Of a stretch of 32,000 bases of DNA, positions 4,812-29,080 are shown piece by piece. The DNA comes from Ancylobacter moscoviensis (GTDB lineage: Bacteria > Pseudomonadota > Alphaproteobacteria > Rhizobiales > Xanthobacteraceae), in the NCBI RefSeq assembly GCF_007559435.1, contig NZ_VMBP01000001.1, positions 465,406 through 497,405 on the forward strand, in the 5' to 3' direction. Numbering within the stretch: the stretch's first letter is position 1; each line of letters opens with the position of its first letter. The notes below the pieces were generated by a model. It saw nothing but the letters and a program-made list of their open reading frames with translations. It made no database searches and was not told the DNA's origin. The position numbers were made by a program, and so were the translations under genes.

Positions 4812-5078
4812 CCGTGCCGGCATCTATGCCGTCGACCGTGGAACGGGCGACACACCACCGGCTACGGCGTCGGCGGGACCCTGACCTGGTACGGCAATAA
4901 CGGCTTCTACGTCGACGGCCAGGCCTCGGTGACGTGGTACGAGAGCGACCTGAAGTCCGATCTGGCGGGTACCCTCGCCAAGAATCTCGACGGCCTCGGC
5001 TACGCCTTCTCGGTGGAAGCGGGCCGGCGCTGCGAGGGCAGCCCGTCTGGCCGATGGCATTGCGAACGGGAAAGTTAA
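4812..5078 (+). pseudogene. Relic of an autotransporter beta-barrel (translocator) domain
   Basis: The stop-to-stop frame has no ATG and reads TTGYGVGGTLTWYGNNGFYVDGQASVTWYESDLKSDLAGTLAKNLDGLGYAFSVEAGRR. This is the typical autotransporter beta-domain strand pattern, but it then runs into unrelated residues and TAA at 5076-5078. An upstream piece (AGIYAVDRGTGDT) sits in another frame, implying a frameshift near 4852-4858. Confidence 0.5.
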
Positions 5079-5291
5079 GAGTACCCATAGTGTAACCGGC
5101 TGACTAGAACAGTCAGCAAGTGACAGTTAGTGACATTGTAAATAAGTATAAATATATATGATAATAAAGATGGAGCGGGAATGTCATTCCATCTGCGCTG
5201 TAGAGGAGCGTGGTGCGTAGGGGTGGCCGCCGACGAAGTTCCTGGTCGAGTAGAAAGCAAAATCATCCAGGGTCTCTAGGGGCGACTTACC

Positions 5292-6794
5292 ATGCCTTTG
5301 AAAAGGGAATTGCGGCGCAGTTGCTCTGCGCTGGCGATTGTGTGCGTGTTGGGAATGGCCGGCCCGGTCTTCGCCCAGACGGCGTCGAACGAGGAATTAT
5401 TCAAGCTTATTCAGGAGCTTCAGACGAAGCAGAGGGCTCTTGAAAACAAGCTCGGAGCCGCAAACGGCGAAATTGCGCGGCTCAAATCTCAACAGTCAAG
5501 GAACTCGGCATTCGCCGCGGCCCCGGCGGTTGGCGTCCAGACCGGAAGCATCGATTCCGGCCCGATCGGCTTCAACCCGCCGCCTGATCCGAGACGCGCC
5601 GTCAGTACGACAAACGTGCGCGTGGAAGCGGGCGGCGGCTACAACGGAGCCGGCTTCGGCGAGGTCGGCGGCTCACTCGCCGTCCCACTCGGCGACAGAT
5701 ACGGCTTCCAGATCGATGCTCTGGGTGGCATGGCCGAGGAAAACGGCATTGCCGGCGCGGCCGCCCACCTTTTCTGGCGCGATCCCGAGGTTGGCGCGCT
5801 CGGTCTTTACGGGAGCTACCTCTACGGCACCGCAGACTGGGGCTTCGACTCCAACGGCTTTGCCAATTCCGGAATGTACGATTTCAAGGGCGGCCTTGAA
5901 GGTCAGCTCTATCTCGGACAATTCACCCTGCAGGGTATCGTCGGCGTCGAGTGGAACAATTTCGGGAGCGGGGATGCCTTTGGCTATTATGGCCAGAGCG
6001 AAGCGCGCTTCTTCGACGACATCCGGCTGGCCTGGTACGCGACAGACGACTTCAAGCTGAGCATCGGCCATCGCTATACGAACGGCGCGAATCAGCTTGT
6101 CGGCGGCCTTGAATACCTGGCCGATTTTGGAGGGGGAACGGCGGCGTCACTGTTCCTCGACGCGTCGTACAGCACCGAGCGCCCGGATTACGGCTATTAC
6201 GGCGATCATTACTCGGGCGACGACTTCACGGTCCTGGCGGGCATCCGGGTCTATTTCGGCTCGGGCAGCACGCCGGCGCCTTCGACAAGCACCGGTGGCT
6301 ACTTCTCGAAGGAGCACGGTTACATCCCGGCCAAGGCTCCCAGCCAGCCCGGTGGACGCTCGCTCAAGCAGCGGGATCGCGGCGATCTGATGCCGAGCTA
6401 TCTCGGCTTCGACGTCGGCGATCTGCCGAAGGCACGGAAGGCGGCTGTCGTCGGTCTGCCCGGTGTGCCGGGAGCGCCGGGCAATCCTGGAACGCCTGGA
6501 ACACCTGGAACACCTGGAACGCCCGGCGCTGCCGGTGCGCCCGGTTCGGACGGCACTCCCGGTACGCCCGGCAAGGACGGTCTTCCCGGTGCACCCGGTT
6601 CGAACGGTGATCCCGGCGCCCCCGGTGCGCCCGGCAAGGATGGTCTTCCCGGGACCCCCGGTTCGGACGGTCTCCCCGGTACACCCGGTTCGAGCGGCGA
6701 GCCCGGTACGCCCGGTCCGGAAGGGTCCCCCGGCGTCCCGGGCAGTCCTGGCCCGTCCGGTCCCCCCGGCCCTCCCGGACCTCCCGGTCCCTGA
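5292..6794 (+). CDS. Secreted chimeric protein: signal peptide, short coiled coil, Omp25/31-like beta-barrel region, linker, C-terminal collagen-like triple-helix repeat
   Basis: 500-aa ORF. The signal peptide [30 protein letters not shown] is followed by the heptad-like [35 protein letters not shown]. Alternating amphipathic strands follow ([76 protein letters not shown]). The protein ends in 113 aa of perfect G-X-Y. Confidence 0.8.
6453..6791 (+). repeat. Collagen-like G-X-Y repeat-coding tract (37 uninterrupted triplets + GP), with 9-bp near-tandem units
   Basis: [34 protein letters not shown]...[11 protein letters not shown] has Gly at every third residue with no interruption. At the DNA level, ggaacgcct/ggaacacct/ggaacacct/ggaacgccc lies around 6489-6524. 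Confidence 0.9.
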
Positions 6795-6802
6795 AGCTTC
6801 TG

Positions 6803-6885
6803 ACGCCAGCGGCCGAAATCGAATGCAGCCGCTGGCGTGGCAGCACAATACGAGCAGCCCGTCTCGGTCGGGCGACGGGCTGCTC
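6803..6885 (+). terminator. Two strong GC hairpins downstream of the collagen-like gene (terminator-like)
   Basis: Hairpin 1 pairs ACGCCAGCGGC (6803-6813) with GCCGCTGGCGT (6828-6838). Hairpin 2 pairs GAGCAGCCCGTC (6852-6863) with GACGGGCTGCTC (6874-6885). Only a weak T-rich tail (cgatttgatt) follows. Confidence 0.5.
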
Positions 6886-6914
6886 GACGCCCGATTTGAT
6901 TGCGAAGGCTGACC

Positions 6915-7685
6915 ATGACGGGACCAAAACTCGAGTGCTATGCGTTGCACGATCCTTCGCCGCAGCTGGTGGCGGCCGCCGCGGATCGGGACTGGATGGA
7001 CGCGACCAACCAGCATTTCGCTTACCGCTGCACGCCCCTCTCCATTGCCAACGCTTCCGGGTGGGAGGTGCTGAATCCCGTCGGCTTCTCGGCCACCTGG
7101 ACCGGATGGAACGGCAAGCAGGACGTCATTCTCCGCCCGCACGAGGCGGGCGTGAATCTGCGCCACACCGGGCTGTTCTTCGGCCACGGAATCCTGAGTT
7201 TCCACCCCGGCTATCTCTTCAGGACCGATCCCGACTGGACAATGTGGGTTCGTGGCTCTCCCAACCGTCTCAAGGATGGGATCCAGCCGCTCGATGGCAT
7301 CGTCGAAACCGGCTGGCTGCCGTTCACCTTCACCATGAACTGGAAGTTCACGCGCCCCTGCACGGTGCATTTTGAGAAGGGAGAGCCCTTCTGCTTCATC
7401 ACGCTGGTGCCGGCCGTCACGATCGAGAGCGTGCAACCGGTGATCCACCGCATCGCCGAAAATGCCGAACTGAACAGGGAATACAAATCCTGGACAAGCG
7501 AGCGGACGAAATTCAGCGCAGCCATCGACCTCGGTGATCCCCTGGCCAATGAACAGAAATGGCAAAAGAACTATCTCGTCGGCCGCTCGCCGAGCGGTAA
7601 CTCCGTCGCCGGCGACAATCACCGCGTGAAGCGCAACCTCAAGGCGCCCATCTGGGCCGACAAGCCGCCCGCGTCGGAAGACTGA
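6915..7685 (+). CDS. Hypothetical protein, DUF6065-like
   Basis: The ORF is open from 6900. GAAGG at 6905-6909 precedes the ATG at 6915. The N-terminal motif [21 protein letters not shown] resembles, from memory, the conserved C-x-P-x(3)-AN-x(2)-GWE core of the DUF6065 family. GC3-rich codon usage supports that it is coding. Confidence 0.6.
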
Positions 7686-7761
7686 GCCCGCTCTGGCCCA
7701 GCGGATGAGGCGCACCCCGCATTTCGGCCCGCGGGAGCTGGAAAAGCGGGGAGCGGGTCAC

Positions 7762-8064
7762 TCAGCGCCCCAGCCGACATCGGTACTTTGCCTGAAAGCT
7801 GACGCCCCGATGGAGTTGGCAGGCCCCCGAACCTCTTTTCGTCAGCGGCCCAAAGCCGTGTTCTCCAGGATGCCCATGCGGATCACGCTGACCCCGCCAT
7901 CGGCGAGGTCCGGCAGGCGCGCGAAGCTGGGCCACGACGGCATAGGCGTCGGCGGGAATGTCGGCATAGCGCACGCCGTCAGCCCCTCGGGCGGTCGCAC
8001 CTGTGGGGAGCGCGGCCGCGACCAATGCTGCCGGCGCTGCACGGGATGGGAGCTTGCGGGGCAT
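7762..8064 (-). pseudogene. Possible frameshifted small gene (unknown function)
   Basis: The ATG at 8064 opens MPRKLPSRAAPAALVAAALPTGATARGADGVRYADIPADAYAVVAQ. After that, GC3-rich coding signal moves to another frame (SFARLPDLADGGVSVIRMGILENTALGR, stop at 7842). No family was recognised. Confidence 0.3.
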
Positions 8065-8081
8065 GGCCGGTCTCCTTGCGC

Positions 8082-8477
8082 TCAGCGCGCTGCCGACACC
8101 ATCTTGCGCCGCGCCTCGAGCGCGTCGTCGAAGGTCTGCTTGACCGGACCCAGTGCCTGTACGAACTCGAGCTGCTCGCCTTCCGAGCCGGTGCAGTAGA
8201 TCAAGCGCCATCCGTCCGACTTGCCTTCGGTGATTCCGTTGGAGTTGGCTTCGAGCGGGGTTGCGCGACGCTCGGCCTCGTTCGCCACGGTCACGATGCG
8301 GTTCGCGCGGACAGCCGTGCCAGCGTCGCCGGGAGGCCGCTGCGCCGAGCAGCGCGTCGAGCGCAAAACCAAGACGACATCCCATACCGGACGCCGATTG
8401 GTATTCCGGCAATCCTGCCCGGCAAGTTCGCGGTTCAAACCGGCGGTGCGCTCATTTCTCGCGAAACCGGACTGCAT
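8082..8477 (-). CDS. Hypothetical small protein (only the C-terminal part of about 95 aa looks coding)
   Basis: GC3-rich codons run through ...ANRIVTVANEAERRATPLEANSNGITEGKSDGWRLIYCTGSEGEQLEFVQALGPVKQTFDDALEARRKMVSAAR. The 5' third has poor codon bias, so the true start is probably an internal TTG/GTG near 8375. The stop lies 17 nt upstream of the next small ORF. Confidence 0.35.
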   Translation of the reverse strand: MQSGFARNERTAGLNRELAGQDCRNTNRRPVWDVVLVLRSTRCSAQRPPGDAGTAVRANRIVTVANEAERRATPLEANSNGITEGKSDGWRLIYCTGSEGEQLEFVQALGPVKQTFDDALEARRKMVSAAR

Positions 8478-8723
8478 CGCCGCACGCGAGAGAATATCCC
8501 CAAAGGCCTTACCTCGGCGGCCCTTTTCCGAGTCAGGTCCGGCGCCATGGAGACAACCATGAACCGGAAACGTGCCGCGCTTTCCGGCGGCTCTCGCAAC
8601 GCGCCAGAGGCTGAATATTCAGTGATATCAATTACGTGAATGGCTGGCGGAGGATGGGAAACTGGATGCGGACGTTCTTCTCGTAACAGGCCGAACTACG
8701 GCGCAAGGCCACGCGCTCCCAGA

Positions 8724-9173
8724 TCAGACCCACGGGTTCTCGAAAACGACGCTTGCCACGAGAGAGATTGCACGCCTCGCATTTGTCTCATGATCCGATC
8801 GTGAGCTGTAATGGTCGTCGATTATTATCTTTGGTCCTCTAGACGGCTTGAAATGAACCAGAGCATTGCGCTCCCTTCGCAACCATTCAAGATCACCTGC
8901 AAAGTCAGAATTGGCAAAGGCCGCCTGCATGCCTCCGTCGAACTCCTGACCGAGTTCTGCTTCTCGAAGGTGAGCGTCAACTACAGTGCAAGACAAAATA
9001 ATCGTGCTGATGAATGCGCCCGCACAGAAAACGGATTGCAGATCCACAAGCAGTGCAGTTGCGTGCTCACCAACAACGTATGCGCCACCGCGTCGTTCAA
9101 TATCGAACTCCGCATCAAACCACGCGCGCCGGGCCTCCCACGTCTCGCTATTCGGATATTCGATCTGATCCAT
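8724..9173 (-). CDS. HEPN-motif protein (DUF4145-like all-alpha protein, putative RNase/toxin)
   Basis: 149-aa ORF in a visibly lower-GC patch. It carries the canonical HEPN R-N-x3-H motif in LEWLRRERNALVHF, preceded by a helix resembling HEPN cores (GAFISTIILSCTVVDAHLREAEL). Confidence 0.65.
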   Translation of the reverse strand: MDQIEYPNSETWEARRAWFDAEFDIERRGGAYVVGEHATALLVDLQSVFCAGAFISTIILSCTVVDAHLREAELGQEFDGGMQAAFANSDFAGDLEWLRRERNALVHFKPSRGPKIIIDDHYSSRSDHETNARRAISLVASVVFENPWV

Positions 9174-9258
9174 GCTCGCCTAGCCAAATCGTCTATAATT
9201 TGTGATTCAAAGGCCATTTCAGTGGTGCTGCAAGACAAAGTTTGATTTTTGAATATAT

Positions 9259-9301
9259 GGTCAAGGCAACATACGAGCATCCGATCGAACATGCCTTGAC
9301 C
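9259..9301 (-). terminator. 10-bp perfect hairpin just downstream of the HTH gene (weak terminator or regulatory structure)
   Basis: GGTCAAGGCA (9259-9268) pairs with TGCCTTGACC (9292-9301) around a 23-nt loop. On the minus strand it is followed by the AT-rich atatattcaaaaatc, with no clean U-tract. Confidence 0.35.
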
Positions 9302-9308
9302 ACTATCA

Positions 9309-9689
9309 TCACATGGTTCTGTCGTTCAGCTTTCTGATGGTTGCCAGGAGATCCTCGGCAGCATATTCGAGATGGGCAAGTTTGACAGCGGCGATTAGAT
9401 CGGGGCGTCCAGCCATGCCCAGGAAGGCATGAAGCACCTCATCGGAGTGCCGGACAAGAGCGACGAGATGCTCCCCGCTCGGACCGTAGCGCCCAGAGAA
9501 CCAGTTCTTCGCGGTTCGTTCGTTGGCTCCGGTCCAAGCTGCAGCCGTTTTCACGGCAGCATGAGTTGAACCGAGCGACCGCTTCAACGCAGACGCAATC
9601 TCCACGGCGAATCGCGTCTCGCTCGACTGCGGCCCGCCACCATTCAACCCATTGCCCGGAAAGGACTTGCCCTTTTTCGGAAACGACAT
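9309..9689 (-). CDS. Small HTH-like DNA-binding protein (repressor or antitoxin candidate)
   Basis: The ATG at 9689 is preceded by AAGGAG 8 nt upstream. The segment AVKTAAAWTGANERTAKNWFSGRYGPSGEHLVALV looks like an XRE-type helix-turn-helix. The gene is divergent from the recombinase. The longer ORF reaching 9809 would overlap the recombinase start. Confidence 0.65.
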   Translation of the reverse strand: MSFPKKGKSFPGNGLNGGGPQSSETRFAVEIASALKRSLGSTHAAVKTAAAWTGANERTAKNWFSGRYGPSGEHLVALVRHSDEVLHAFLGMAGRPDLIAAVKLAHLEYAAEDLLATIRKLNDRTM

Positions 9690-9763
9690 TCCACGCTCCT
9701 TCGCTTTAAGTTGGCGAAGGGCATTGAGCTGGAGGCGTTGCAGGAACGACGAGATACGACCGA

Positions 9764-11359
9764 GTGCCGCGTGAGGATGGAGCATTGAAAGGGCAACTCT
9801 CGAAGCCAAAACGTAAGGTCGATGATGATGCCGGCAACGATATTGCCGCCGTCGCCTACGTGCGCATGTCGACGGACCATCAGAAGTACTCGACGGAGAA
9901 CCAACTCGACGTCATCAAGAAGTATGCTGTAGCGCGTGGTCTGACGATTTTGCACGTCTTCGAGGACTCCGGACGAAGTGGTCTTCGTCTCGATGGACGG
10001 GAGGCGCTGCAAAGCCTGATGGCCGAGGTCACATCCGGTCACGCCGGATTCTCAGCGATACTTGTCTACGACGTGAGTCGCTGGGGCCGCTTCCAGGACG
10101 CGGACGAAGGCGCCTATCATGAGCACATCTGCTCCCGCGCCGGCATTCGGGTTCACTATTGCGGGGAGCAGTTCGAGAACGACGGTAGCATCGGTTCCAA
10201 TCTGCTGAAAACCGTCAAGCGCGTTATGGCGGGCGAGTACAGTCGCGAGCTTTCAGTCAAGGTATTTGCGGGCCAATGCCGCTTGGTCGAACTCGGATTT
10301 CGGCAGGGCGGTACGCCAGGCTACGGCCTGCGCCGTGTGTTGATCGACGAGCACGGCAACACCAAGGGCGAACTTGGGCGAGGCGATCGAAAAAGCCTTC
10401 AGACCGACCGTGTCGTGCTGATTCCAGGACCGACCGAGGAGGTCGACACTGTCCAGCGGATGTATCGCTTGTTCGTGCATGAGGGGCGATCCGAGAGAGA
10501 AATCGCGGCTGCACTGAACGCTGACGGGATCATAACGGACTTCAGCCGGCCGTGGACGCGGGCGGCGGTTCATCAAGTCCTGACCAACGAAAAATACATC
10601 GGCAATAACGTCTACAACAAGGTCTCGTTCAAGCTGAAGCAACGGCGCGTCGTCAATCCGAGAGAGATGTGGATCCGGGCTGAAGGCGCGTACTCGCCGG
10701 TCGTCGATCAGGCGCTTTTCGAGCGCGCACGCGCGATCATTGACGCGCGCAGCCGGCACTATTCCGACGAAGAGCTGCTGGCGATGCTCCGAGCCCTGCT
10801 CGAAGAATATGGCAGCCTGTCGGGCATCGTGATCGACGAGCACGACGACATGCCGTCGTCGAGCGCATATCGGTATCGCTTCGGCAGCCTGCTGCGAGCC
10901 TACGAGTTGATCGGCTACGAGCCCGATCGCGACTACCGCTACATCGAAGTCAACCGCGCCTTGCGCGAGGCGCATCCGCAGGTCGTCGCGGACGTTATGG
11001 CCGGAATTGCCGCGGCAGGCGGGCGGTCCGAGCGAGATCCCATCAGTGATCTGATCCGCGTGAATGACGAATTCACGGCTTCGATTGTCATCGCGCGCTG
11101 CTGTGAAACCCAGACGGGATCGTTGCGATGGCGAATCCGGCTCGACGTCGGTCTCGTCCCGGACATCACGATTGCGGTCAGGATGAACGAGGAGAACAAG
11201 GCGCCCCTCGACTACTACGTTCTGCCAGGCATCGACATGAGCCTGCCACGCCTTCGTCTGGCCCATCAGAATGGGTTGGCGCTCGATGCCTATCGCTTTG
11301 AAACGCTCGATTTCTTCTATGCGCTGGCCGGGCGGGCCTATTTTTCGGAGGCGGCTTGA
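9764..11359 (+). CDS. Large serine recombinase (resolvase catalytic domain + recombinase domain)
   Basis: The catalytic context AVAYVRMSTDHQ, then VYDVSRWGR, and a recombinase-domain pattern (GGTPGYGL...VQRMYRLFVHEGRSEREIAAALNADGIIT...W...VHQVLTNEKYIGN) are all present. No CxxC zinc ribbon was seen in the C-terminal third. The start is GTG 9764 or TTG 9785. Confidence 0.9.
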   Translation: MPREDGALKGQLSKPKRKVDDDAGNDIAAVAYVRMSTDHQKYSTENQLDVIKKYAVARGLTILHVFEDSGRSGLRLDGREALQSLMAEVTSGHAGFSAILVYDVSRWGRFQDADEGAYHEHICSRAGIRVHYCGEQFENDGSIGSNLLKTVKRVMAGEYSRELSVKVFAGQCRLVELGFRQGGTPGYGLRRVLIDEHGNTKGELGRGDRKSLQTDRVVLIPGPTEEVDTVQRMYRLFVHEGRSEREIAAALNADGIITDFSRPWTRAAVHQVLTNEKYIGNNVYNKVSFKLKQRRVVNPREMWIRAEGAYSPVVDQALFERARAIIDARSRHYSDEELLAMLRALLEEYGSLSGIVIDEHDDMPSSSAYRYRFGSLLRAYELIGYEPDRDYRYIEVNRALREAHPQVVADVMAGIAAAGGRSERDPISDLIRVNDEFTASIVIARCCETQTGSLRWRIRLDVGLVPDITIAVRMNEENKAPLDYYVLPGIDMSLPRLRLAHQNGLALDAYRFETLDFFYALAGRAYFSEAA

Positions 11360-12261
11360 TGCAAGGCGATATAGTGAACGGGAGCCAGAAGCAGGTAGCC
11401 CTCATCCCGACCGAGCGGGTGCGCGTGCTGAATCCTCGCGCGCGCAATCGGCGCAACTTCGAGGAGATCGTCGACAACATTGCCAAAGTCGGACTGAAGC
11501 GGCCCATCACGGTCAGCAGACGGCCAGGAAGCGATCCGACGGAATATGATCTCGTATGCGGTCAAGGACGGCTGGAGGCATTCATCCAGCTCAAGCAGAG
11601 CGAGATCCCGGCCATCATCATCAACGCCAACGAGGATGAATGTTTGGTGATGAGCCTGGTCGAGAATTGCGCTCGTCGTCAGCATCGAGCGATCGATCTG
11701 ATGCAGGAAATCGGGACGCTGCGCCGCCGCGGCTACAACGACCGTCAGATCGCCGAGAAGATCGGCGTCAGCCCGGAATACGTGAACATGATCGCCGGGC
11801 TGCTGGAGCGTGGTGAAGAGCGTCTGGTCTCGGCGGTGGAAACGGGGCTCTTACCGCTCAATCTCGCCATTGAAATCTCGCGCACCGACGATGAGGGCGC
11901 ACAACGCGCTCTGATGGACGCCTACACCGAGAAGAAGCTGCGGGGCAAAAAGCTCGCTGCCGTTCGTCGGCTGTTGCAGCAGCGCAAGCGCCGTGGGCGC
12001 CATGTCGACGAAACCCCGTTCGGCCGCAAGGTCCAGCGACCACTGACGAGCGATGCGCTTGTCCGGGTCTATCGGCAGGAAGCGGATCGCCAGAAACTGA
12101 TGATCAAGAAGGCGGAGGTCACGCAGAATCGGCTTCTGTTTGTGGTGGAGGCGTTCCGTGCTCTGCGCGAGGACGAGCACTTCCTGACGCTTTTGCGTGC
12201 AGAGGGATTGGATTCCATGCCCGCTTGGCTGGAGAGCCGGCTGGTCGCGGGGGCGAACTGA
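11359..12261 (+). CDS. ParB/Spo0J-like protein 1 (ParB N-terminal domain + HTH)
   Basis: The ATG at 11359 shares one nucleotide with the recombinase TGA (TTGATG). ParB N-domain motifs are present (VRVLNPRARN...GLKRPITV...LVCGQGRLEAF...LVENCARR), followed by an HTH (YNDRQIAEKIGVSPEYVNMIAGLL). Confidence 0.85.
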   Translation: MQGDIVNGSQKQVALIPTERVRVLNPRARNRRNFEEIVDNIAKVGLKRPITVSRRPGSDPTEYDLVCGQGRLEAFIQLKQSEIPAIIINANEDECLVMSLVENCARRQHRAIDLMQEIGTLRRRGYNDRQIAEKIGVSPEYVNMIAGLLERGEERLVSAVETGLLPLNLAIEISRTDDEGAQRALMDAYTEKKLRGKKLAAVRRLLQQRKRRGRHVDETPFGRKVQRPLTSDALVRVYRQEADRQKLMIKKAEVTQNRLLFVVEAFRALREDEHFLTLLRAEGLDSMPAWLESRLVAGAN

Positions 12262-13178
12262 TGAAACGCGAGCCGCATCGCCCATCCGACACCGTGAAGA
12301 TCGCCTTCGAAGAAGACTTCGTCGTCCTGCCGATTAGCGCGATCCTGCCGGTTCACACGCTGCGCAAGACGGTGAAGGCGAGTCAGAAATACCGGCAGAT
12401 CACCGCATCGGTGCGTGAGGTCGGCTTGGTCGAGCCGCCGGTGGTCGCCCGCGACAAAAGCAAATCCGGAACCTTCCTGCTGCTTGATGGGCATTTGCGG
12501 ATCGAGATTCTGAAGGACCTCGGCATAACCGAAGTCGAATGCCTCATTTCAACAGACGACGAGGCGTTCACTTACAACAAGCGGATCAGCCGGCTCGCGG
12601 CCGTTCAGGAACACAAGATGATCAGGCGTGCGATCGAGCGCGGCGTGCCCGAGGAGAAGATTGCCAAGGCGCTCGATATCAATGTCCAGAGTGTGCAGCG
12701 CAAGGTGCGGCTGCTGGACGGGATTTGCGAGGAGGCCGTCGCGCTCCTGAAAGACAAGCCATGCCCCATCGGCGTCTTCGAGACATTGCGGAAGATGAAA
12801 ACGCTCCGCCAGATCGAGGCCGCCGAGCTTCTCGTCAACGCCAACAACTACTCGGTCGCCTACATCTCGGCGATTCTGGCCGGCACCCCGCAGTCCCAGC
12901 TCGTCGACACGAGCAAATCGAAACGCCTCAAGGGTCTGACGCCGGAGGCCATGGCTCGAATGGAGAGCGAGCTCAGTCGGTTGCAGGAAGCGATAACCTC
13001 GATCCAGGACTCCTACGGGAAGGACCACCTGCAGCTCACCGTCGTCAAAGGATATCTCGCAAAGCTGCTCGGGAACGGTCGCATCGTCCGCTACCTGATG
13101 ATGCATCGCCCCGAGTTTGTCGGGGAGTTTCAGACGATTGCAGAAATGACGTCGACCATGCCGGCCGAGTTGTCCTGA
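12261..13178 (+). CDS. ParB/Srx-like protein 2 (DGHxR-type ParB N-domain, RepB-like C-terminal region)
   Basis: The ATG at 12261 shares one nucleotide with the preceding TGA (CTGATGA). Motifs are ILPVHTLRK...VGLVEPPVV...LLLDGHLRIEILKDLG, an HTH (VPEEKIAKALDINVQSVQRKVRLL) and a helical tail. It has diverged strongly from protein 1. Confidence 0.85.
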   Translation: MKREPHRPSDTVKIAFEEDFVVLPISAILPVHTLRKTVKASQKYRQITASVREVGLVEPPVVARDKSKSGTFLLLDGHLRIEILKDLGITEVECLISTDDEAFTYNKRISRLAAVQEHKMIRRAIERGVPEEKIAKALDINVQSVQRKVRLLDGICEEAVALLKDKPCPIGVFETLRKMKTLRQIEAAELLVNANNYSVAYISAILAGTPQSQLVDTSKSKRLKGLTPEAMARMESELSRLQEAITSIQDSYGKDHLQLTVVKGYLAKLLGNGRIVRYLMMHRPEFVGEFQTIAEMTSTMPAELS

Positions 13179-13362
13179 CCGCCGGTCTTGGCGACGACGA
13201 TGGGGACCCGGACCCGATAAGCGCGGGGACCGCGGGAGAAGCCGCACGGTGGGGCGGATCAAGCGCGGTGGTGGGAATGGCGGCGAACCCGTTCGGAGCC
13301 CACAAGGCCGGCTGAGTTTTCGCCGGCCGCTGCCGGGTTGCACCGGCATTTCGATGCGGCGC

Positions 13363-13403
13363 GGGGCGTGCCGGACCAGGGATTGTCGGCACGCCCCTTT
13401 TTT
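13363..13403 (+). terminator. Rho-independent terminator closing the recombinase-ParB-ParB operon
   Basis: GGGGCGTGCCG (13363-13373) pairs with CGGCACGCCCC (13387-13397) and is followed by TTTTTT (13398-13403). It sits in the convergent gap with the minus-strand late operon. A second hairpin, GGCCGGC/GCCGGCC, lies at about 13306-13328. Confidence 0.7.
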
Positions 13404-13406
13404 CGC

Positions 13407-13604
13407 TCACTTGGGTGCGCTCCCGACGCCGGCACGCAGAGTGCCGAGGCCGAGCGCGGCGAGGATCTGGGTGAGCCAATCGGAGCCGACATCGACGCCA
13501 GGCACGTCGATGCCGAGCCCCTTCTCGACGATCACGACGAGGATCAGCGTCGCGGCGATGATGTAGGTGCGGTAGCCCGCGCCGAACTGCAGGATGGCGT
13601 TCAT
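13407..13604 (-). CDS. Small two-TM membrane protein (holin-like, by position)
   Basis: The ATG at 13604 follows a GGAGA Shine-Dalgarno. The 65-aa product MNAILQFGAGYRTYIIAATLILVVIVEKGLGIDVPGVDVGSDWLTQILAALGLGTLRAGVGSAPK has two hydrophobic helices. It lies directly after the endolysin. Confidence 0.55.
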   Translation of the reverse strand: MNAILQFGAGYRTYIIAATLILVVIVEKGLGIDVPGVDVGSDWLTQILAALGLGTLRAGVGSAPK

Positions 13605-13627
13605 GGGTGGTCTCCAATGAAAGATGA

Positions 13628-14197
13628 TCAAGCCTCGTTGACCGAGAGGCTGCCGGAAGAGCCGAGGACGATGGGGCGCACGTTCGCTGGCTGGGCCAGG
13701 TAGGCGGGCCGGCGCACGGCAACGAGGCGCTGCTTGGAGAGGCGGGAGATCGTCACGCGGTCGGACTGGTTTCCGCCGAGGACATGGAAGGCCGAGGCGT
13801 CGTGGCCGACATAGAGGCCGACATGCCCTCCGCAACTGCGCTTGAAGACGAGGACATCGCCGAGTGCCGCTGCGCTTTTCGGGATCGCTTTGCCGAACGC
13901 GGTCCAGGCGAGCGCCGAGAGGTAGAGTTTCGGTGGATTGCGTTCCGGCCGGCGTTCGACATTCGCCCGGTGGGCGGTCACCGCCATGAACAGCCCGCAC
14001 CAGGGGATCGCATCGGCGTCGTAGAAGCCGCCATAGTCTCGGCCGAGTCCTGCCGCCTGAAGCTCACGCTGCCAGCCGAGAATGCGCGGATTGTCCGCGT
14101 TGCCCGGCGCCTCCATGACACCGAATTCTTTCAGGGCTTCGACCAGCATGCGCGGTCCCGGCTCGCTCGCGAGCCAGCGGTAGTCTTTGGGCAACAT
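13628..14197 (-). CDS. Phage cell-wall hydrolase / endolysin, TIGR02594-type (NlpC/P60-CHAP-like)
   Basis: The ATG at 14197 is preceded by GGAGA. The motifs NPRILGW, IPWCGLFMAV (catalytic Cys context), GDVLVFKR..GGHVGLYVG and VLGGNQSDRVTI match the TIGR02594 family pattern as I recall it. Confidence 0.8.
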   Translation of the reverse strand: MLPKDYRWLASEPGPRMLVEALKEFGVMEAPGNADNPRILGWQRELQAAGLGRDYGGFYDADAIPWCGLFMAVTAHRANVERRPERNPPKLYLSALAWTAFGKAIPKSAAALGDVLVFKRSCGGHVGLYVGHDASAFHVLGGNQSDRVTISRLSKQRLVAVRRPAYLAQPANVRPIVLGSSGSLSVNEA

Positions 14198-14207
14198 CGG
14201 GATCTCC

Positions 14208-14234
14208 AAACAAAAAAACCCGCCGGAGGGCGGG
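14208..14234 (-). terminator. Rho-independent terminator (minus strand) between the membrane-protein gene and the endolysin
   Basis: The minus strand reads CCCGCC-ctcc-GGCGGG followed by TTTTTTTGTTT. The stem is at 14219-14234 and the T-tract at 14208-14218. Confidence 0.65.
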
Positions 14235-14260
14235 CTGGGTGGCGGGGATGGGTTGGAAGG

Positions 14261-14602
14261 TCAGGCGTGCTTCCGCTCGTCCTCATGGTTTTCGAGGCGG
14301 TCGATGCGCTCGCGAAACTCGCCAAGCGTCGCCTTCATCTGGGCGATGTCGGTTCGGGCCTCGGCGACGACCTTGCGGCCGGCGATGTCGTTCGAGACGT
14401 CCACCTTGATCTCCGCGATCTCGCGGGCGTTCGCGGCGAAGCTCGCGTCGATCAGGGCAAACCGGCCGGAGAGCCACCAGGCGATCCTGACGAGGAACAC
14501 GATCAGGATCAGAAGCTCGGCGATGATACTGCCTGCGACCATCCAGGTGATCGTGATGGCTTCGGGCGCGACGGTGACAGCCGCCGCAGGGACTGCGGAC
14601 AT
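14261..14602 (-). CDS. Phage membrane protein: one N-terminal TM helix + coiled coil (holin/spanin-like candidate)
   Basis: The ATG at 14602 follows GAGAGGAG. The sequence is MSAVPAAAVTVAPEAITITWMVAGSIIAELLILIVFLVRIAWWL, then the charged helical AREIAEIKVDV...IAQMKATLGEFRERIDRLENHEDERKHA. Confidence 0.6.
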   Translation of the reverse strand: MSAVPAAAVTVAPEAITITWMVAGSIIAELLILIVFLVRIAWWLSGRFALIDASFAANAREIAEIKVDVSNDIAGRKVVAEARTDIAQMKATLGEFRERIDRLENHEDERKHA

Positions 14603-14742
14603 GGTGACTCCTCTCAGGGTTTTGGGTTGGCGAACGCTGGCGCACACGTCGCCGAGGGGCGCGAAGGGCGGGCGGAGCGCGGTATCCCCCGCAGGCGTGT
14701 GCGGTCGCGCCCACGGGGCGCCTGTCGCGCGACTGTGGCCGG

Positions 14743-15441
14743 TCAGGCGTTGGGGGCCGTGAAGGCGAGCGCGTAGAGGACGAGGCGCACCCTGCCGCCG
14801 GTAAAGTTGCCGCCGGCGGCGGTCACACGCACGGGCGTGTCAGCGTAGAAAGCGGTTGGACCGATCACACCGATATTGGTTGAGCCCAGCGCGATCCCGA
14901 GCGAGCCGCCGAACTGGCTGGTGTTGCCGGCGACGCCGACCGAATAGGACGTCGCTCCAGTGATGGCCTGCGTGGTCCGTGACGCGACGGCGAGAACAAT
15001 CATCCGATCGGCGATCACGACGGTGGTCGCATCGACGTAGGCGCCCGAGAGGGTAAGCTCTTGTTCGAGCGCGACGAGGCGAATCGCCCCACCATTCGGC
15101 GTGCCGACGATCCGATCACGCCAGGCGCCGTCGGACCAGGTGAGCGTCAATCGCTCATCCTCGACATGGATCGTCCAACCGGCGTTGGGGATGAGGAAGG
15201 TCCAGGCTCCCGAAAGCCAGACCGCGATCTGCCCGGCCTTGCTCGCCCAAAGACCCGTCGGGCTTGCCCCGATGATCCAGCGCTCGCCCTCATTCGGACT
15301 GGCGGGTGGCGCGGAGAGGCTGCGGGTCTTCACCGCCGGCATGACGAGGGCATCAAGCAGTGCGAGCCCTTCATTGACGGTGACGTGCTTCTGCGCCTGG
15401 TCGGCCGCGAGCTGCGGCAGACCAAGATTGGTCGTCGGCAT
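14743..15441 (-). CDS. DUF2793-type phage tail fibre-like protein
   Basis: The N-terminus TTNLGLPQLAADQAQKHVTVNEGLALLDALV...PPASPNEGERWIIG...WASKAGQIAVWLSGAWTFLIPNAGW matches the DUF2793 signature found after g15 in GTA-like tail modules. Confidence 0.75.
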   Translation of the reverse strand: MPTTNLGLPQLAADQAQKHVTVNEGLALLDALVMPAVKTRSLSAPPASPNEGERWIIGASPTGLWASKAGQIAVWLSGAWTFLIPNAGWTIHVEDERLTLTWSDGAWRDRIVGTPNGGAIRLVALEQELTLSGAYVDATTVVIADRMIVLAVASRTTQAITGATSYSVGVAGNTSQFGGSLGIALGSTNIGVIGPTAFYADTPVRVTAAGGNFTGGRVRLVLYALAFTAPNA

Positions 15442-15468
15442 TGTCGTTCCTTCGGTTGGGAGATGAGG

Positions 15469-18400
15469 TCAGAGCGTGCTTGTGATTTCGGCGCTTCCGC
15501 CCGGACCGAAGACGCGCGAGACCTGCGCCACGCGCCATTTGAGCGTCGCCGGCTGCGCCCCGAAATCCGCGACCTGCTGGGCCGCCGTGTAGAGAAGGTT
15601 CGCGCTCGTCACCCGCGTCGCCCGGAGCACGGTCGATCCGTTGAGGATCGCAACGTCGTATTCCTCGGCCTCTTCGCCGAGTGGAACCTCGGCAAACCAG
15701 GAATCGCCGCCGATGCGGCTGCGCCGGATCCAAGAGAGGCGCACATCGCCTCCGGTTTCGCGGCTGGCCCTCAGATGAACCGGCGTGAATGGCTTCAGGC
15801 CGCGTCCGCCATTGGCGAAGGGCAGCGACAGCGCATGATCGCCGGCGGGCCCTTCCGGCACGGGCGCCCCCTTGTAGGCGATCGTCAACCCGAGCCGCGA
15901 AACCGAGAACGTGGGGCGCACCTGCCGGGCGGGGTCGAGCATGATGAAGCGCGATCCGGCCGGATGGGTGACGACCTCGCCCTCGGTGCCGCGCTGGCCG
16001 CGCAGGAGGCGCGAGAGGCGATAGCGCCCGGCGGCAATCAACTCGGCAGTCGCGAACTGGACGATCTCGTTGCCGATCAGCGCCGCGTTCGATCCCGCCA
16101 GCACCCGCTCGTCGGGCAGAGATTGCAGTGCGCCGTGGTCGAGCTGAACCTCGACGCTGTTCCCGCGATCCCAAATCCAGACCGGCCCGGAAGACAGAGT
16201 GGTCACTGTCACCCCCATGGTCGAGGCAAGCGTCGCCACGGTTGCCGAAACATAGTCGAGACCGTCGGCGGTCGGCTGAAAGAGGCTGGCGCCCCGGAAC
16301 CGCCCACCGCCGAGCGGACATGCCGCCATGTAGAAGGACGGCGATGATGCCTCGTGCGCATCAATGAGGATGGGCATATCGAGAAGCTCGATGCGCACCG
16401 GTGAGACGGGCTCGGGGGCGGCAGGTGGCAGGCTCCCCGACCCTGTCGGCGTCGAGACGAAATCCGGATTACCGCCATCGGTGGCCTGGCCGCGCACCAG
16501 CACGAGGCCGGGCTTGCCAAAGGTGACCGAGGTGACACGGTATCGCCGCAGCGCACCGTCGACCGGCACCTCGACAACGTCGGTCGGGTCAATCTTGAGC
16601 CCTCGGGTTGGCAGGCGAAGATCGATTGCCTCGCGTCCCTGCCACATCTCGCGCAACGCCCGCTGCCCGATGGTTTGCGCCTGCTCGACCGAAAGCACGA
16701 TCGGCAAAGAGAAGGTCGTCACGCTGTCGGAGCGGCCGACCTGCTTGCGGATGGTGACGGTCGAGGACTGATAGTCGCGCCCCTCGTCGATGTGGACGAC
16801 ATCGATGGCGATGGGCAACTCGGTATCCTGCGTGCGCTCGATTTTCACCCGTGAGCGATCGCTGTCGCTGTCCGAGGCGCCAAGATCTTCAGCATCGATC
16901 GCTACGATGCCACTGCCGCCGCGCTTGACGAAGACGAGCTTGCCGTCGCGCTCGACACAATCGAAGAAGTAGGCCGTCTGAAGCACCGCGATCATGTCGC
17001 GGATCGATTTGCGTTCGGTCACCACATAGCCGACGACCTCGTCATCAAGCGCCGAGGCATCGAACTCGGATGCAAGCAACCCCGCACGCAGGCATAGATC
17101 GCCGACGATGTCGGAGAGTCGCATGTTGCCAATCTTTCCGTTGATCCAGTGACCGAGCCGGTAGTTCGCCCCGTCGCTCCAGACATTCGATAGCGTCGGG
17201 AACCATGGATAGGGCCGCGCGTCCCAACACCAGACGAAGCGTCTGGCCAGCATCGGTCCACCATAGGCGGGCGAGACCGGGTTGTTGGCCGGGTCGCGCC
17301 AGTATTCCTCCGTCGCCTCGAGCGCGGCGCGTTGGACGACACGGTCGACCGCGCCCGTCGAATAGTAGGGCGCGAAGCTCTCGACCGATTTCGGGTCGAT
17401 GAAGACGTTCGGCTGGTTGGTGGCGCAGTTCACCGTCGGAAAGCCGATCTCCGTGAACCAGATCGGCTTGGCGCGCGGCGTCCAATCCGTCGGCGATCCA
17501 GTCGGGACGCCGGCGACCCTTGGGATGTGAGTGTTCTCCCACCACCAGCGCAGCGCCTTGATCGCCCAGAAGGGCTCAGAGATCGGCGACCGGATCGGCG
17601 CAAGCCCACGCCGGTCGAGATCGCGGTCGGAGGGGCTCGCATAGTAGTAGTCGACGAGTTCACCGCCCTGCCAGCCGGCCTTGATCGCTTCCTTGTCCTG
17701 GACAGCGCGCGGCGCGTCAGTCAGCGGGAAATAGGCGTCGATCCCGACGACATCGATACTCGGATCGGCCCAGAGTTCATCGAGCGGGAAATCGACATCG
17801 CCGCCGCCACGGTCGTGGTAGCGATATTCCGACCAGTCGGCGCAATAGGTCACCTGGCAGGCAGAGCCGAGACGGCTCTTCGCCTCTGCGGCGATCTGCT
17901 TCCAATAGGCCACGGCTGGATAAGCTCCGCCGGCGTCCCGGATGCGATTGAGGGCGACCATTTCCGAACCGATCGCAAAGCCATCGACACCGCCTGCCTG
18001 CTCGCAGAGCGTCATTCCGTGCCGGATGAGCCGCAGATATCCATCGGCACGGGTGAAGAAGCCGGGCACGTCCGCGGCGGTGCCGGTGATGCGCCCGCGC
18101 CACGGAAAAGGCGCCGGATCGGGCGGCGGGATGTCCATCAGGATGAACGGGTAGAACAGAACCTTCAGGCCGCGCGCCTTCAGGTCCTGAATCGCGCGCA
18201 CAACGGCGCCGTCGGCGATCGTCCCGCCATAATAGAGGCCGAGCGAACCGTCGGGATGGGTATAGGACGAGACCATCGGCCAATGCGGCAGGCCGGAGAT
18301 CCCACCATCCATGCCGAAGAGCGGACGGCCGATGCCGGCGACGCTCCAGACATGAGGGCGGCTCTCCGGCACCTGATCGGCATAGACGCCCGTCTCGCAT

Positions 18401-19317
18401 TCCGGGCGCAACGAACAGGTCGCGACATCGAGCGACGTGCCAAACCAAGCATAGACCAGCGAGATCCATTCGACGTTCGGCAGTTCGCGCTGCAGGTTGT
18501 CGATTGCGACCGAGAAGTCGGCGCGCTTCTGGCCGGCATGGGCGTTGATCGCCGCCTTGAAACCGCTGCCCGCACCATGCCGGTTCGAGAACACGACGTC
18601 CGGATCGTAGGCGAACTCGCCCGATGCCGGGATGAGGCATAGGCTCTCGACGAGATGGCGCGCATCCGACGTGCCGGCGGGTGATCCGCGAAACACCTCG
18701 ATCTCGAAGTTCGGAAAGCGGTTGCCGAAGGCGGTGAGGTGGAGATTTTCGAGAACGACATAGGCCGTGCCGCGGAACGCCGGCGTGCGGTCTGCGCCTT
18801 CGACCGCCTGGATCAGCGGATCGGGGCCTTGCGCCTCGTCGCCATAGTAGATGCGGATTTCGTCGATGTGGTCGGAATCGATCGGCTGGCCGTCGACCCA
18901 GATGCGGTAGACCGAGGTCAACGGTCCTTCGCCAAGCCCCAGCGCCACATCGGCATAGTAGTGGTAGCTGGTCGTGACGACGGTCTGCGATCCGCCGCCG
19001 CCTTTGCCGCCGCCACCGACCGTTTCGGTGGTCGTGCGCACCTCCTCACGGATGCCGCGCGCCCAGATGATGTTGGCCGGGATCCGCCCTCGGCCATAGA
19101 CGTTCGGCCGGACTTGCCCGTAGGCCGATCCCGAGAGCCGGACATCGGTGACCTTGCCTTCTTCCCGCTTCTGACGGTTGGTCTGTGGGCCGAACAGCTG
19201 CTGGTCGAGGATGCCGCCGATGGTCGCGCCAAACAGCGCGCCGAGACCCTGGCCGAAGGCTCCGCCCACCGCCTGGCCGAGCGCGCCGCCCGCCAGCGTG
19301 AGTACGAGCTGGGCCAT
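15469..19317 (-). CDS. Host-specificity / baseplate 'megatron' protein (RcGTA g15-like, with TIM-barrel-like glycoside hydrolase region)
   Basis: 1282 aa. The Gly-rich N-terminus MAQLVLTLAGGALGQAVGG, then TTTETVGGGGKGGGG, QGPDPLIQAVEG, the large central domain and the position after the g12/g13/g14-like genes all match g15-type proteins. Confidence 0.9.
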   Translation of the reverse strand: MAQLVLTLAGGALGQAVGGAFGQGLGALFGATIGGILDQQLFGPQTNRQKREEGKVTDVRLSGSAYGQVRPNVYGRGRIPANIIWARGIREEVRTTTETVGGGGKGGGGSQTVVTTSYHYYADVALGLGEGPLTSVYRIWVDGQPIDSDHIDEIRIYYGDEAQGPDPLIQAVEGADRTPAFRGTAYVVLENLHLTAFGNRFPNFEIEVFRGSPAGTSDARHLVESLCLIPASGEFAYDPDVVFSNRHGAGSGFKAAINAHAGQKRADFSVAIDNLQRELPNVEWISLVYAWFGTSLDVATCSLRPECETGVYADQVPESRPHVWSVAGIGRPLFGMDGGISGLPHWPMVSSYTHPDGSLGLYYGGTIADGAVVRAIQDLKARGLKVLFYPFILMDIPPPDPAPFPWRGRITGTAADVPGFFTRADGYLRLIRHGMTLCEQAGGVDGFAIGSEMVALNRIRDAGGAYPAVAYWKQIAAEAKSRLGSACQVTYCADWSEYRYHDRGGGDVDFPLDELWADPSIDVVGIDAYFPLTDAPRAVQDKEAIKAGWQGGELVDYYYASPSDRDLDRRGLAPIRSPISEPFWAIKALRWWWENTHIPRVAGVPTGSPTDWTPRAKPIWFTEIGFPTVNCATNQPNVFIDPKSVESFAPYYSTGAVDRVVQRAALEATEEYWRDPANNPVSPAYGGPMLARRFVWCWDARPYPWFPTLSNVWSDGANYRLGHWINGKIGNMRLSDIVGDLCLRAGLLASEFDASALDDEVVGYVVTERKSIRDMIAVLQTAYFFDCVERDGKLVFVKRGGSGIVAIDAEDLGASDSDSDRSRVKIERTQDTELPIAIDVVHIDEGRDYQSSTVTIRKQVGRSDSVTTFSLPIVLSVEQAQTIGQRALREMWQGREAIDLRLPTRGLKIDPTDVVEVPVDGALRRYRVTSVTFGKPGLVLVRGQATDGGNPDFVSTPTGSGSLPPAAPEPVSPVRIELLDMPILIDAHEASSPSFYMAACPLGGGRFRGASLFQPTADGLDYVSATVATLASTMGVTVTTLSSGPVWIWDRGNSVEVQLDHGALQSLPDERVLAGSNAALIGNEIVQFATAELIAAGRYRLSRLLRGQRGTEGEVVTHPAGSRFIMLDPARQVRPTFSVSRLGLTIAYKGAPVPEGPAGDHALSLPFANGGRGLKPFTPVHLRASRETGGDVRLSWIRRSRIGGDSWFAEVPLGEEAEEYDVAILNGSTVLRATRVTSANLLYTAAQQVADFGAQPATLKWRVAQVSRVFGPGGSAEITSTL

Positions 19318-19320
19318 GGA

Positions 19321-19956: not shown

Positions 19957-20000
19957 GCTAGGAAGAGGGTTAGATTGAGTTGATATGGAGAATGTGAGCG

Positions 20001-21987: not shown

Positions 21988-21997
21988 GGGAAGTGGC

Positions 21998-22582: not shown

Positions 22583-22593
22583 CGGAACATCCG

Positions 22594-25989: not shown

Positions 25990-26012
25990 GGAGGTGGATC
26001 GGCCTTCCGGGC

Positions 26013-26334
26013 TCAGGCACCGTCGGTCCCGCGCCGGTAGGCGGCGACGACGATCGGTTCGATTTCGGGCAAGATGTCAGCAAGGAGCGCGGTGCCGGCC
26101 CCCATCGCCTGCGCGAGCGCCAGGATCGCGGCGAAGTCGAGCGCATAGGCTGCGCCCATCACGGCTCGGATCTGTCCAGTCGAGCGACGGATCACTTCCC
26201 AGGCAAGAAGCCCGTCGCCAGTCTGCAGCGCATTGATCTCATAGGGGCACTCGGGACATCTGCTCGGACACGCCGAGCAATAGCTTTCGCCCCCGTCGAA
26301 GTGCCATGTGGCGAGGGCGATCAGACGTTTTTTT
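26013..26334 (-). CDS. gpT-like -1 frame extension of the tail assembly chaperone (GT fusion C-terminal part)
   Basis: The -1 frame reads KKRLIALATWHFDGGESYCSACPSRCPECPYEINALQTGDGLLAWEVIRRSTGQIRAVMGAAYALDFAAILALAQAMG...RRGTDGA. There is no ATG before GTG 26195, yet the coding bias extends up to the slippery site. Confidence 0.55.
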
Positions 26335-26677: not shown

Positions 26678-26687
26678 GGGTTTTCCT

Positions 26688-29079: not shown

Positions 29080-29080
29080 C

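Follow-up and report, generated by a model that had tools for sequence, protein, structure and literature searches.

A 32,000-nucleotide stretch of the Ancylobacter moscoviensis genome (contig NZ_VMBP01000001.1, positions 465,406 to 497,405; this whole stretch is called the window below) carries the integrase-proximal end of a prophage. Two small genes lie there on the same strand, one encoding a 149-residue protein with a motif typical of the HEPN superfamily and the other a 126-residue protein with a helix-turn-helix (HTH). We find that this arrangement is best explained by a solitary, prophage-borne HEPN gene that is carried as cargo and whose product is a probable ribonuclease (RNase) of defence or exclusion, next to an HTH gene that would act as the regulator of the integration module. 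As a whole, we consider this explanation probable. We are highly confident that the 149-residue protein is a HEPN protein and that the two genes are not a pair, and about evenly divided on a role of the protein as a defence RNase, which is argued by analogy.

A preliminary description of this DNA had proposed a toxin-antitoxin or abortive-infection (Abi) pair of HTH and HEPN proteins, with a phage regulator beside a solitary HEPN gene as the alternative. It is the alternative that fits the data, and much better than the pair. Our survey of HTH homologues covers 79 genome loci and nine viral contigs from IMG/VR (L019-L097, L102-L110). Downstream sequence exceeds 700 nucleotides (nt) in 80 loci, and one of them has a HEPN-family gene there. 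Upstream sequence exceeds 1 kb in 80 loci, where a divergent recombinase gene adjoins the HTH gene in 78 and is displaced by 0.6-1.1 kb in the remaining two. The lone co-occurring locus is that of Bosea minatitlanensis (L020), the closest isolate genome, in which the HEPN gene (8469-8923) is frameshifted by a 1-nt deletion into two open reading frames (ORFs) and the HTH gene is intact. The public protein of this HEPN copy is a 116-residue fragment.

The HEPN-side survey comprises 18 metagenome loci and nine encoding contigs. An HTH gene directly precedes the HEPN gene only in the lineage to which the window belongs (L001-L003, 93-95% identity), and HEPN relatives with no neighbouring HTH gene are found at about 20 independent loci outside the Bosea lineage (L004-L018, L098-L101, L111-L118). 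Furthermore, in L001 (4841-7643), a metagenome contig whose element is 93% identical to that of the window, the HTH gene is broken by an insertion of the IS66 family some 42 codons from its start. The HEPN ORF (95% identity) has stayed whole there, with a second HTH copy in trans being possible in this case. A toxin kept only alongside an intact antitoxin would not be expected in such a setting. Homologues that never occur together with the HTH gene had been named beforehand as evidence against a pair, and by this standard the pairing is refuted. In agreement with the preliminary description, no nucleotidyltransferase gene of the MNT type is adjacent in the window or in the related loci examined, and the arrangement of HEPN-MNT systems is thus absent from them. 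Judging from these gene neighbourhoods, the HTH and HEPN genes appear to stand side by side through the layout of the phage genome and not as a functional pair.

The 149-residue protein and its family

The HEPN call on the 149-residue protein, which the preliminary description had made from the motif and its all-helical context, is well supported by the conservation of its motif. HEPN domains are defined by a conserved Rx4-6H motif in which the residue right after the arginine is usually a polar N, D or H (PMC3710099), and the segment R102-N103-A-L-V-H107 has this form. W97, L98, R99, R102, N103 and H107 are invariant in all 32 sequences of the close-family alignment, and R99, R102, N103 and H107 are conserved at 90% or more across the 70 members of a diverse alignment that reaches down to about 20% identity. 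Such conservation indicates that the R-N-x3-H motif is not a product of chance.

Structure prediction, which had been suggested as a check, gives an all-helical protein with the motif in the HEPN position. The AlphaFold2 model built on the family alignment is confident (predicted local distance difference test (pLDDT) 90.5, predicted template modelling score 0.87) and contains helices at residues 36-51, 54-73, 92-106 and 118/125-143. R102 and N103 close the helix 92-106 in this model, and H107 is the first residue of the loop that follows. The predicted placement matches that described for the motif at helix 3 of HEPN domains (PMC3710099).

Comparisons of fold and profile also point to HEPN families, though below significance throughout. 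HEPN proteins account for seven of the ten best Foldseek matches of the model in the Protein Data Bank (PDB), at E-values of at least 0.66 and template modelling (TM) scores of at most 0.47. They include the HEPN domain of sacsin, the HEPN toxins 7bxo_H and 7ae8, AbiV, ST0689 and an SSO homologue. Eight of the 70 family members match the Pfam family HEPN_Cthe2314 (best 1.9e-4), four match DUF4145 (best 8e-6) and four match HEPN_RiboL-PSP, while eight of ten distant members match HEPN families of Pfam over residues ~77-140, the region of the motif. Anantharaman et al. (PMC3710099) count DUF4145 among the families of the HEPN superfamily. Indeed, repeated Pfam matches of relatives of the 149-residue protein are to HEPN families alone and always cover the motif region. 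Foldseek against the viral structures of BFVD returned nothing meaningful.

The closest named relatives are Cthe_2314 (PF18730), RiboL-PSP-HEPN (PF18735), MAE_28990 (PF18737) and DUF4145 (PF13643), which share with the 149-residue protein a small size, an all-helical architecture and an Rx4H motif with a polar residue. Table 1 of PMC3710099 lists Cthe_2314-like and related HEPN families as stand-alone, their genes having no constant partner in an operon. Unlike these named families, however, the family described here is matched by their models below the gathering thresholds, and the 149-residue protein itself is matched by none of them. For HEPN_Cthe2314 (PF18730) the protein has no match at E <=1, and its relatives score 12.6-17.4 bits against a gathering threshold of 27.1 bits. 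The family also has an extra N-terminal helix of its own, in which W12, R15 and F19 are invariant, as well as the signature WLRxxRN. We regard it as separate because the Pfam HEPN matches are below threshold and because of these family-specific features. On the sequence comparisons made here, the 149-residue protein would thus fall outside every named HEPN family and into a family of its own, so far without a name, which is very probably a stand-alone family within the HEPN superfamily.

This family comprises 41 clusters at 90% identity, nearly all of 145-153 residues and all annotated as hypothetical. When 1.84 billion cluster representatives were searched with a profile, 259 of them were recovered, and at 50% identity the family has about 260 clusters. 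A wide-profile database search found no named or Pfam-annotated relative except for one UniRef entry labelled 'DUF4145 domain-containing'.

Genomic contexts and possible function of the HEPN gene

The HEPN family has no conserved neighbour and is found mostly on mobile or defence-island DNA. In L113 (916-4228), and likewise in L114 and L115, the HEPN gene follows an ASCH gene, an ASCH/PDC-M11B gene, a PDC-M11A gene and a P-loop kinase-like gene in one operon, where PDC systems are 'phage defence candidates' found by guilt-by-embedding. This operon stands beside a TIR-FGE-sulfatase gene and two dynamin-like GTPase genes, and the neighbourhood looks like a defence island. L116 contains a HEPN gene, a gene for a 323-residue protein and an HNH gene between patatin and CBASS genes. 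Other copies come after guaA and adjoin vapBC (L100) or lie near an integrase gene and a MmeI-type restriction-modification gene (L099).

We propose that the 149-residue protein dimerises and that two R102-N103-x3-H107 motifs would then form a composite, metal-independent RNase site, by analogy with the HEPN literature (PMC3710099). The gene may be expressed from the lysogen, either from the AT-rich 70 nt upstream of it or by read-through past the hairpin that precedes it, which has no U tail. Its product would act for prophage and host as an effector of exclusion or abortive infection that stays inactive before a trigger. In none of the contexts examined is a cognate antitoxin gene encoded alongside the HEPN gene, and since no antitoxin travels with it, the protein would have to be intrinsically inactive before the trigger, like the single-gene HEPN proteins of Abi systems.

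These single-gene Abi proteins, such as AbiV, are the closest working analogues. AbiV, AbiD/F, AbiJ and AbiU2 are, like the gene studied here, single HEPN genes without an antitoxin on mobile DNA, and the AbiV structures 9bj5 and 9bj7 are among the top fold matches, at TM scores of only 0.33-0.42. AbiV typically lacks the canonical histidine of the motif (PMC3710099), whereas H107 is invariant in the family of the 149-residue protein, which has no sequence or PADLOC match to AbiV. There is also a likeness to HepT-MntA, in which the HEPN toxin has ~130-150 residues and an Rx4H motif about two-thirds along, and two HEPN toxins (7bxo_H, 7ae8) are among the fold matches. In contrast to HepT-MntA, no nucleotidyltransferase gene is adjacent, and one relative is HepT-like at E 0.062 only. 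The absence of this gene sets the system apart from HepT-MntA, just as the failed co-occurrence sets it apart from an HTH-toxin pair. The presence of the family in both prophage cargo slots and defence islands therefore makes it reasonable to consider the protein a candidate RNase of exclusion or abortive infection, encoded by one gene and without an antitoxin.

Several observations weigh against a solitary HEPN gene that encodes a defence RNase. Every match of the family to a HEPN model or structure is below significance. The distant members score 12-21 bits, under gathering thresholds of about 27-28, the 149-residue protein has zero matches in the Pfam, NCBIfam, PADLOC and PHROG libraries, and PDB sequence searches that started from this protein, from two distant members or from the profile of 70 members gave chance matches only. 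No HEPN homologue was found in ~50,000 deposited phage genomes or 72,000 plasmids, nor a sigma-70 consensus promoter for the HEPN gene in the 9174-9308 gap. The gene is dispensable in at least one lysogen because the Bosea minatitlanensis copy is a pseudogene, and an unpartnered RNase would need some way of being kept harmless. The case for defence is drawn from gene neighbourhood, in which PDC-M19 and PDC-M11 are themselves candidates only. Finally, a distant subfamily (35-40% identity, on high-GC contigs) is encoded directly after a PccA-like biotin carboxylase gene in three loci (L010/L011, L012 and L015), and such housekeeping-type synteny is unfit for a pure defence role.

Some of these points would favour a 149-residue protein without a defence role, which could be a HEPN-like protein of RNA processing or regulation, a non-catalytic helical domain, or a protein of benefit to the phage in host takeover or counter-defence. 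The synteny with the biotin carboxylase gene, the sub-threshold character of all HEPN links and the lack of an antitoxin anywhere, which fits a non-toxic protein, are each in line with it. However, the R-N-x3-H motif is of the catalytic type and invariant, whereas HEPN domains that only bind usually lose it (PMC3710099), and most contexts of the gene are mobile or defence-island DNA. We consider a protein with no part in defence to be unlikely.

Another set of contexts raises the question of whether the HEPN gene belongs to a larger system. PDC-M19A (DUF488), PDC-M19B and HEPN genes follow each other in this order in four independent loci (L004, 6096-8450; L008, 3011-5377; L111/112, 3287-5438 in L111; L005, 30-1186), with start codons that touch or overlap the stop codon before them. 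This recurring order, together with the second operon context of PDC-M11B/A and a kinase-like gene, would be consistent with a component of a multi-gene defence system, in its commonest context the third gene after PDC-M19A/B, that has been orphaned in the window and is inert alone or has its partners elsewhere in the host. The PADLOC models for M19 and M11, however, describe two-gene systems without the HEPN protein, and in PADLOC-DB v2 at E <=10 neither the 149-residue nor the 126-residue protein has a match, nor do the HEPN relatives in L004 and L116. Clearly solitary copies (L007, L098, L099, L100, L117 and that of the window) are no rarer, and the partners differ between contexts, a trait typical of independent defence-island genes. 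A literature search on DUF488 in defence systems found nothing. An orphaned component thus seems rather doubtful to us, and we continue with the solitary cargo gene.

The end of the element and its cargo slot

The edge of a mobile element, which the preliminary description had suspected next to the two genes, is real. The window is 88-95% identical at the nucleotide level to L001, L002, L003 and L020, and this similarity stops at ~8642-8645, with the shared sequence of the four relatives ending in ...CAGTTTCC(C/T)ATCCTCCGCCA, that is, ...CCTCCGCCA(G). Four unrelated flanks are found past this point, namely the window's, one shared by L001 and L002, that of L003 and that of L020. Because the similarity to all four relatives stops here and is followed by four flanks, the element ends ~80 bp past the HEPN stop codon. 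The occurrence of the same prophage end in four flanks points either to loose target choice by the recombinase or to a target that lies in variable DNA. Apparently loose target choice is consistent with the passages on the Paracoccus virome in PMC6536676, where the integration sites of most serine-recombinase prophages are given as unidentified.

Comparison with a HEPN-less viral contig from IMG/VR (L102), which has the same tail genes and the same recombinase module, places the HEPN gene in a cargo slot inside the element, between the 3' hairpin of the HTH gene and the terminal segment (Table 1). The distance from hairpin to terminal motif is ~40 nt in L102 versus ~565 nt in the window, and a weaker copy of the motif ends both L102 and L019, another HEPN-less relative. 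The 9258-9302 repeat is kept in these two and so belongs to the HTH side, and the promoter-side portion of the intergenic gap, beside the HEPN gene, occurs only in the lineage that carries HEPN. We interpret the HEPN gene as an accessory cargo gene, or 'moron', in a short slot that would extend from the hairpin to the att-like segment of ~45 nt. A related HEPN gene (52% identity) occupies the other variable slot of a related module in L007, just beyond the second of its two ParB-like genes (ParB2).

Two other roles of the 9258-9302 hairpin were considered and rejected. It is not a canonical intrinsic terminator, given its 23-nt loop region, the absence of a U-tract and a negative terminator scan. 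Neither is it an att crossover. The divergence of L019 at this place (5420-8090) is due to an IS21-family element (IstA/IstB) that inserted into the hairpin loop with an 8-bp target duplication, ATCGATTG.

The terminal motif (...GTTTCC..CTCCGCCA) is also found downstream of solitary HEPN genes in L098 (6487-6529) and L117/118 (620-663 in L117), and in L099 it stands on both sides of the HEPN gene (5898-5937 and 6486-6528). A transfer RNA (tRNA) gene, tRNA-Ser, lies 63 nt ahead of the HEPN gene in L098 and L117/118, and its 3' end (..GTCCGCCA) resembles the motif. The ~45-nt motif may derive from an att site, from the decayed end of a prophage or from a mini-cassette. It is conceivable, if improbable, that the HEPN gene constitutes a mini-cassette of ~0.6 kb with att repeats resembling the 3' end of tRNA-Ser, which would be mobilised in trans between tRNA-Ser sites and the att-proximal ends of serine-recombinase prophages and provide a so far unrecognised effector for several defence systems. 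If true, the HEPN gene would be a third gene of PDC-M19 and PDC-M11 that also acts alone. That the window's HEPN gene is a tRNA-Ser-associated host islet by the attachment site, or an att-bounded cassette of ~0.6 kb integrated in tandem, would suit the tRNA-Ser, HEPN and motif order of L098 and L117/118 and the flanking motifs of L099, but is very unlikely, since both sides of the window's HEPN segment, the hairpin and the terminal motif, are homologous to HEPN-less L102, the segment accompanies the prophage in each of the four flanks, and an nhmmer search found no copy of the motif between the HTH and HEPN genes of the window.

Table 1. Features at the prophage end and in the remainder of the window (positions in the window)
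Feature	Position	Strand	Remarks
HEPN-family gene	8724-9173	-	149 residues; last gene of the element; contains LEWLRRERNALVHF
XRE/Cro-like HTH gene	9309-9689	-	126 residues; fourth gene of the recombinase module; contains WTGANERTAKNWFSG
Codons of R102-N103-A-L-V-H107	8853-8870	-	Rx4H catalytic-type motif of the HEPN protein
Codons of the HTH, helices 43-53 and 57-65	9495-9563	-	secondary structure from the model; ERTAKNWFS is the predicted recognition helix
Intergenic gap between HTH and HEPN genes	9174-9308	-	135 nt; AT-rich, 42% GC
Perfect inverted repeat of 11 bp, 23-nt spacer	9258-9302	-	just past the HTH stop codon
Putative HTH mRNA leader hairpin	9690-9727	-	7-bp repeat inside; 3' arm is the Shine-Dalgarno sequence
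Large serine recombinase gene, prophage integrase	9764-11359	+	Pfam Resolvase and Recombinase
Two overlapping ParB-N/RepB-C-like genes	11356-12261, 12225-13178	+	Pfam RepB 7e-34, 1e-54
Prophage structural genes	14743-32000	-	DUF2793 tail protein, gene transfer agent (GTA)-type host-specificity protein, baseplate hub, tape measure, tail tube, capsid
Terminal segment of the element, ~45 nt, att-like	8644-8688	-	ends ...CAGTTTCCCATCCTCCGCCAG; resembles a tRNA 3' end

Much of the layout in the preliminary description stands. Both same-strand ORFs and the gap between them are present, as are the peptides RRERNALVHF and TGANERTAKNWFSG in the respective proteins and both inverted repeats, one with perfect arms of 11 nt (9258-9268/9292-9302) and the other, CCTTCGC/GCGAAGG, at 9698-9704/9714-9720. 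The divergent neighbour is indeed a recombinase, of the large serine type with Resolvase and Recombinase domains, and the prophage setting is correct, with tail, tape-measure, tube and capsid genes at ~14.7-32 kb and both small genes at the integrase end. The patch of low G+C (GC) content is likewise real, at 0.53-0.55 over 8501-9500 versus ~0.65 for most of the window; the sole other comparably GC-poor stretch is 5001-5500 (0.534). By feature, the GC content is 52.7% in the HEPN gene, 42% in the gap, 58.8% in the HTH gene, 60-61% in the recombinase and ParB genes and ~66% in the phage structural genes. In the host flank, the stretch 5292-7685 encodes a 500-residue protein, whose N-terminus resembles a signal peptide and whose long tail consists of collagen-like Gly-X-Y repeats, and after it a DUF6065 protein (Pfam 1e-90).

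The recombinase module and its HTH regulator

The HTH gene belongs to a four-gene module in which it is divergent from three others, the gene of a large serine recombinase and an overlapping pair of ParB-N/RepB-C genes. Members of Rhizobiales, Rhodobacterales and Caulobacterales share this module at 60-92% protein identity. The recombinase has 531 residues with an N-terminal Resolvase domain (PF00239, 4.6e-20) and a Recombinase domain (PF07508, 1.3e-23), the combination expected of large serine recombinases. The two ParB-like genes usually come after the recombinase gene and are kept in most loci, many of which are from Paracoccus and Rhodobacterales, and tail genes often abut the module, with the same ones doing so in L020, L038, L058, L064, L065, L078 and L102. 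We see the module as the integrase end of a group of related alphaproteobacterial prophages, and the HTH gene would be its regulatory fourth gene. The integration modules of serine recombinases in siphovirus-type prophages of Paracoccus and other alphaproteobacteria are comparable (PMC6536676), and the passages of that paper on Paracoccus prophages mention neither a module of HTH, recombinase and two ParB genes nor a HEPN gene. Our literature search found no account of this module as one unit. Window DNA from 8600 to 13200 had no match among deposited phages, and the HTH protein had no homologue in deposited phage genomes.

We further note a number of features of the module and its surroundings. 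Some genomes contain two copies, within ~8 kb of each other in Rhodobacter capsulatus SP36 (L034) and ~58 kb apart in CP078014 (L031, L038). Unlike the phage-borne copies, that on the conjugative pAt plasmid of A. fabrum (NZ_CP119538.1, 39087-46047; L119) is without phage genes, and it has a Fic-family gene on its ParB side and an AbiEii/AbiGii toxin gene with a DUF6088 gene on its HTH side. Judging by gene content, the module seems to gather toxin or defence genes as cargo on either side. In the window, the other cargo slot, from ParB2 to the tail genes, is filled by two genes without a family match (13338-14776; 121 and 330 residues), which are present only in the closest relatives, both in L020 and L102 and the first alone in L001.

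The HTH protein itself has more than 795 homologues and varies unusually little, its identities in these three orders being 60-92%; a relative is encoded in at least 211 genome stretches. An AlphaFold2 model (pLDDT 86) predicts an XRE-type five-helix fold with a long C-terminal helix, and its top Foldseek matches are all HTH proteins of the XRE/Cro/cI type (probability up to 0.95, E 0.08-1). The model and its structural neighbours bear out the XRE-like HTH that had been read from the sequence, and on this basis the protein can be classed as an XRE/Cro/cI-type HTH regulator. Its HTH is formed by helices 43-53 and 57-65, whose residues are invariant in an alignment of 33 homologues. The N-terminal tail MSFPKKGK-FP is invariant in the same alignment and disordered in the model, and this invariance identifies the ATG at 9689 as the true start of the gene, which also has a longer, TTG-initiated version extending to 9809. 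The five-helix fold with the HTH at 43-65 is shared with P22 c2, the N-terminal domain of lambda cI and the C-proteins of restriction-modification systems. Unlike P22 c2 and lambda cI, however, the 126-residue protein is encoded at the extreme end of a prophage beside serine recombinase and ParB-like genes, with no cI/cro switch. The protein did not match Pfam HTH_3, its profile gave chance matches only against PDB sequences, and its single match in PHROGs is phrog_23106, which has no assigned function there.

The preliminary description had proposed the 7-bp inverted repeat at 9698-9720 as an operator of the HTH protein. The repeat changes between lineages whereas the recognition helix is constant, and it is for this reason better explained by an RNA structure that sequesters the Shine-Dalgarno sequence of the HTH gene. 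In all 58 distinct leaders the Shine-Dalgarno region can be paired with an upstream pyrimidine stretch, and the arms differ by lineage yet remain complementary (CTTCGC/GCGAAG, CTCCTTG/CAAGGAG, TCCCTCG/CGAGGGA and CTCCTCGGG/CCCGAGGAG). The mean minimum free energy of these leaders is -13.7 kcal/mol versus -10.6 with shuffled left arms, and -13.7 versus -11.7 in a swap test, a modest margin. RNAalifold found no consensus structure in the leaders aligned with MAFFT, since the left arm shifts register between lineages, and the hairpin is therefore argued from per-sequence folding, the shuffles and the modest swap test. These data support, but do not prove, that the repeat is part of an RNA hairpin hiding the Shine-Dalgarno sequence, which we take as more likely than an operator and which suggests translational control of the regulator of the module. 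A conserved GGCTGAAT box within the 9690-9830 region is another candidate operator of the HTH protein.

An HTH protein that serves as antitoxin or repressor of a HEPN toxin, in a two-gene toxin-antitoxin or Abi module on the prophage, is highly improbable in the light of these results. The two genes are adjacent on the same strand in the window, in L001-L003 and in L020, the hairpin between them has no U-tract so that co-transcription is possible, and HTH antitoxins of the XRE type are common. Yet co-occurrence is one in 80 from the HTH side and confined to a single lineage from the HEPN side, the HTH protein retains its high conservation in hundreds of HEPN-less elements, the HTH gene is set apart by the 135-nt gap, by a 3' hairpin of its own and by a leader common to HEPN-less relatives, and the IS66 element of L001 knocks out the HTH gene beside an intact HEPN ORF.

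The finding that the HTH gene is fixed in a very widespread alphaproteobacterial integration module illustrates that an HTH gene beside a toxin-like gene does not count as evidence for a toxin-antitoxin pair. The four-gene module is the more notable by-product of this analysis, and its putative leader hairpin that hides the Shine-Dalgarno sequence and its cargo slots for Fic, AbiE and HEPN genes may be of broader interest than the pair. The setting of the HEPN gene in a prophage cargo slot is ordinary. What is new is the family, which adds to the HEPN superfamily, very probably, a small and unannotated group of proteins that has no Pfam, NCBIfam or PADLOC model.

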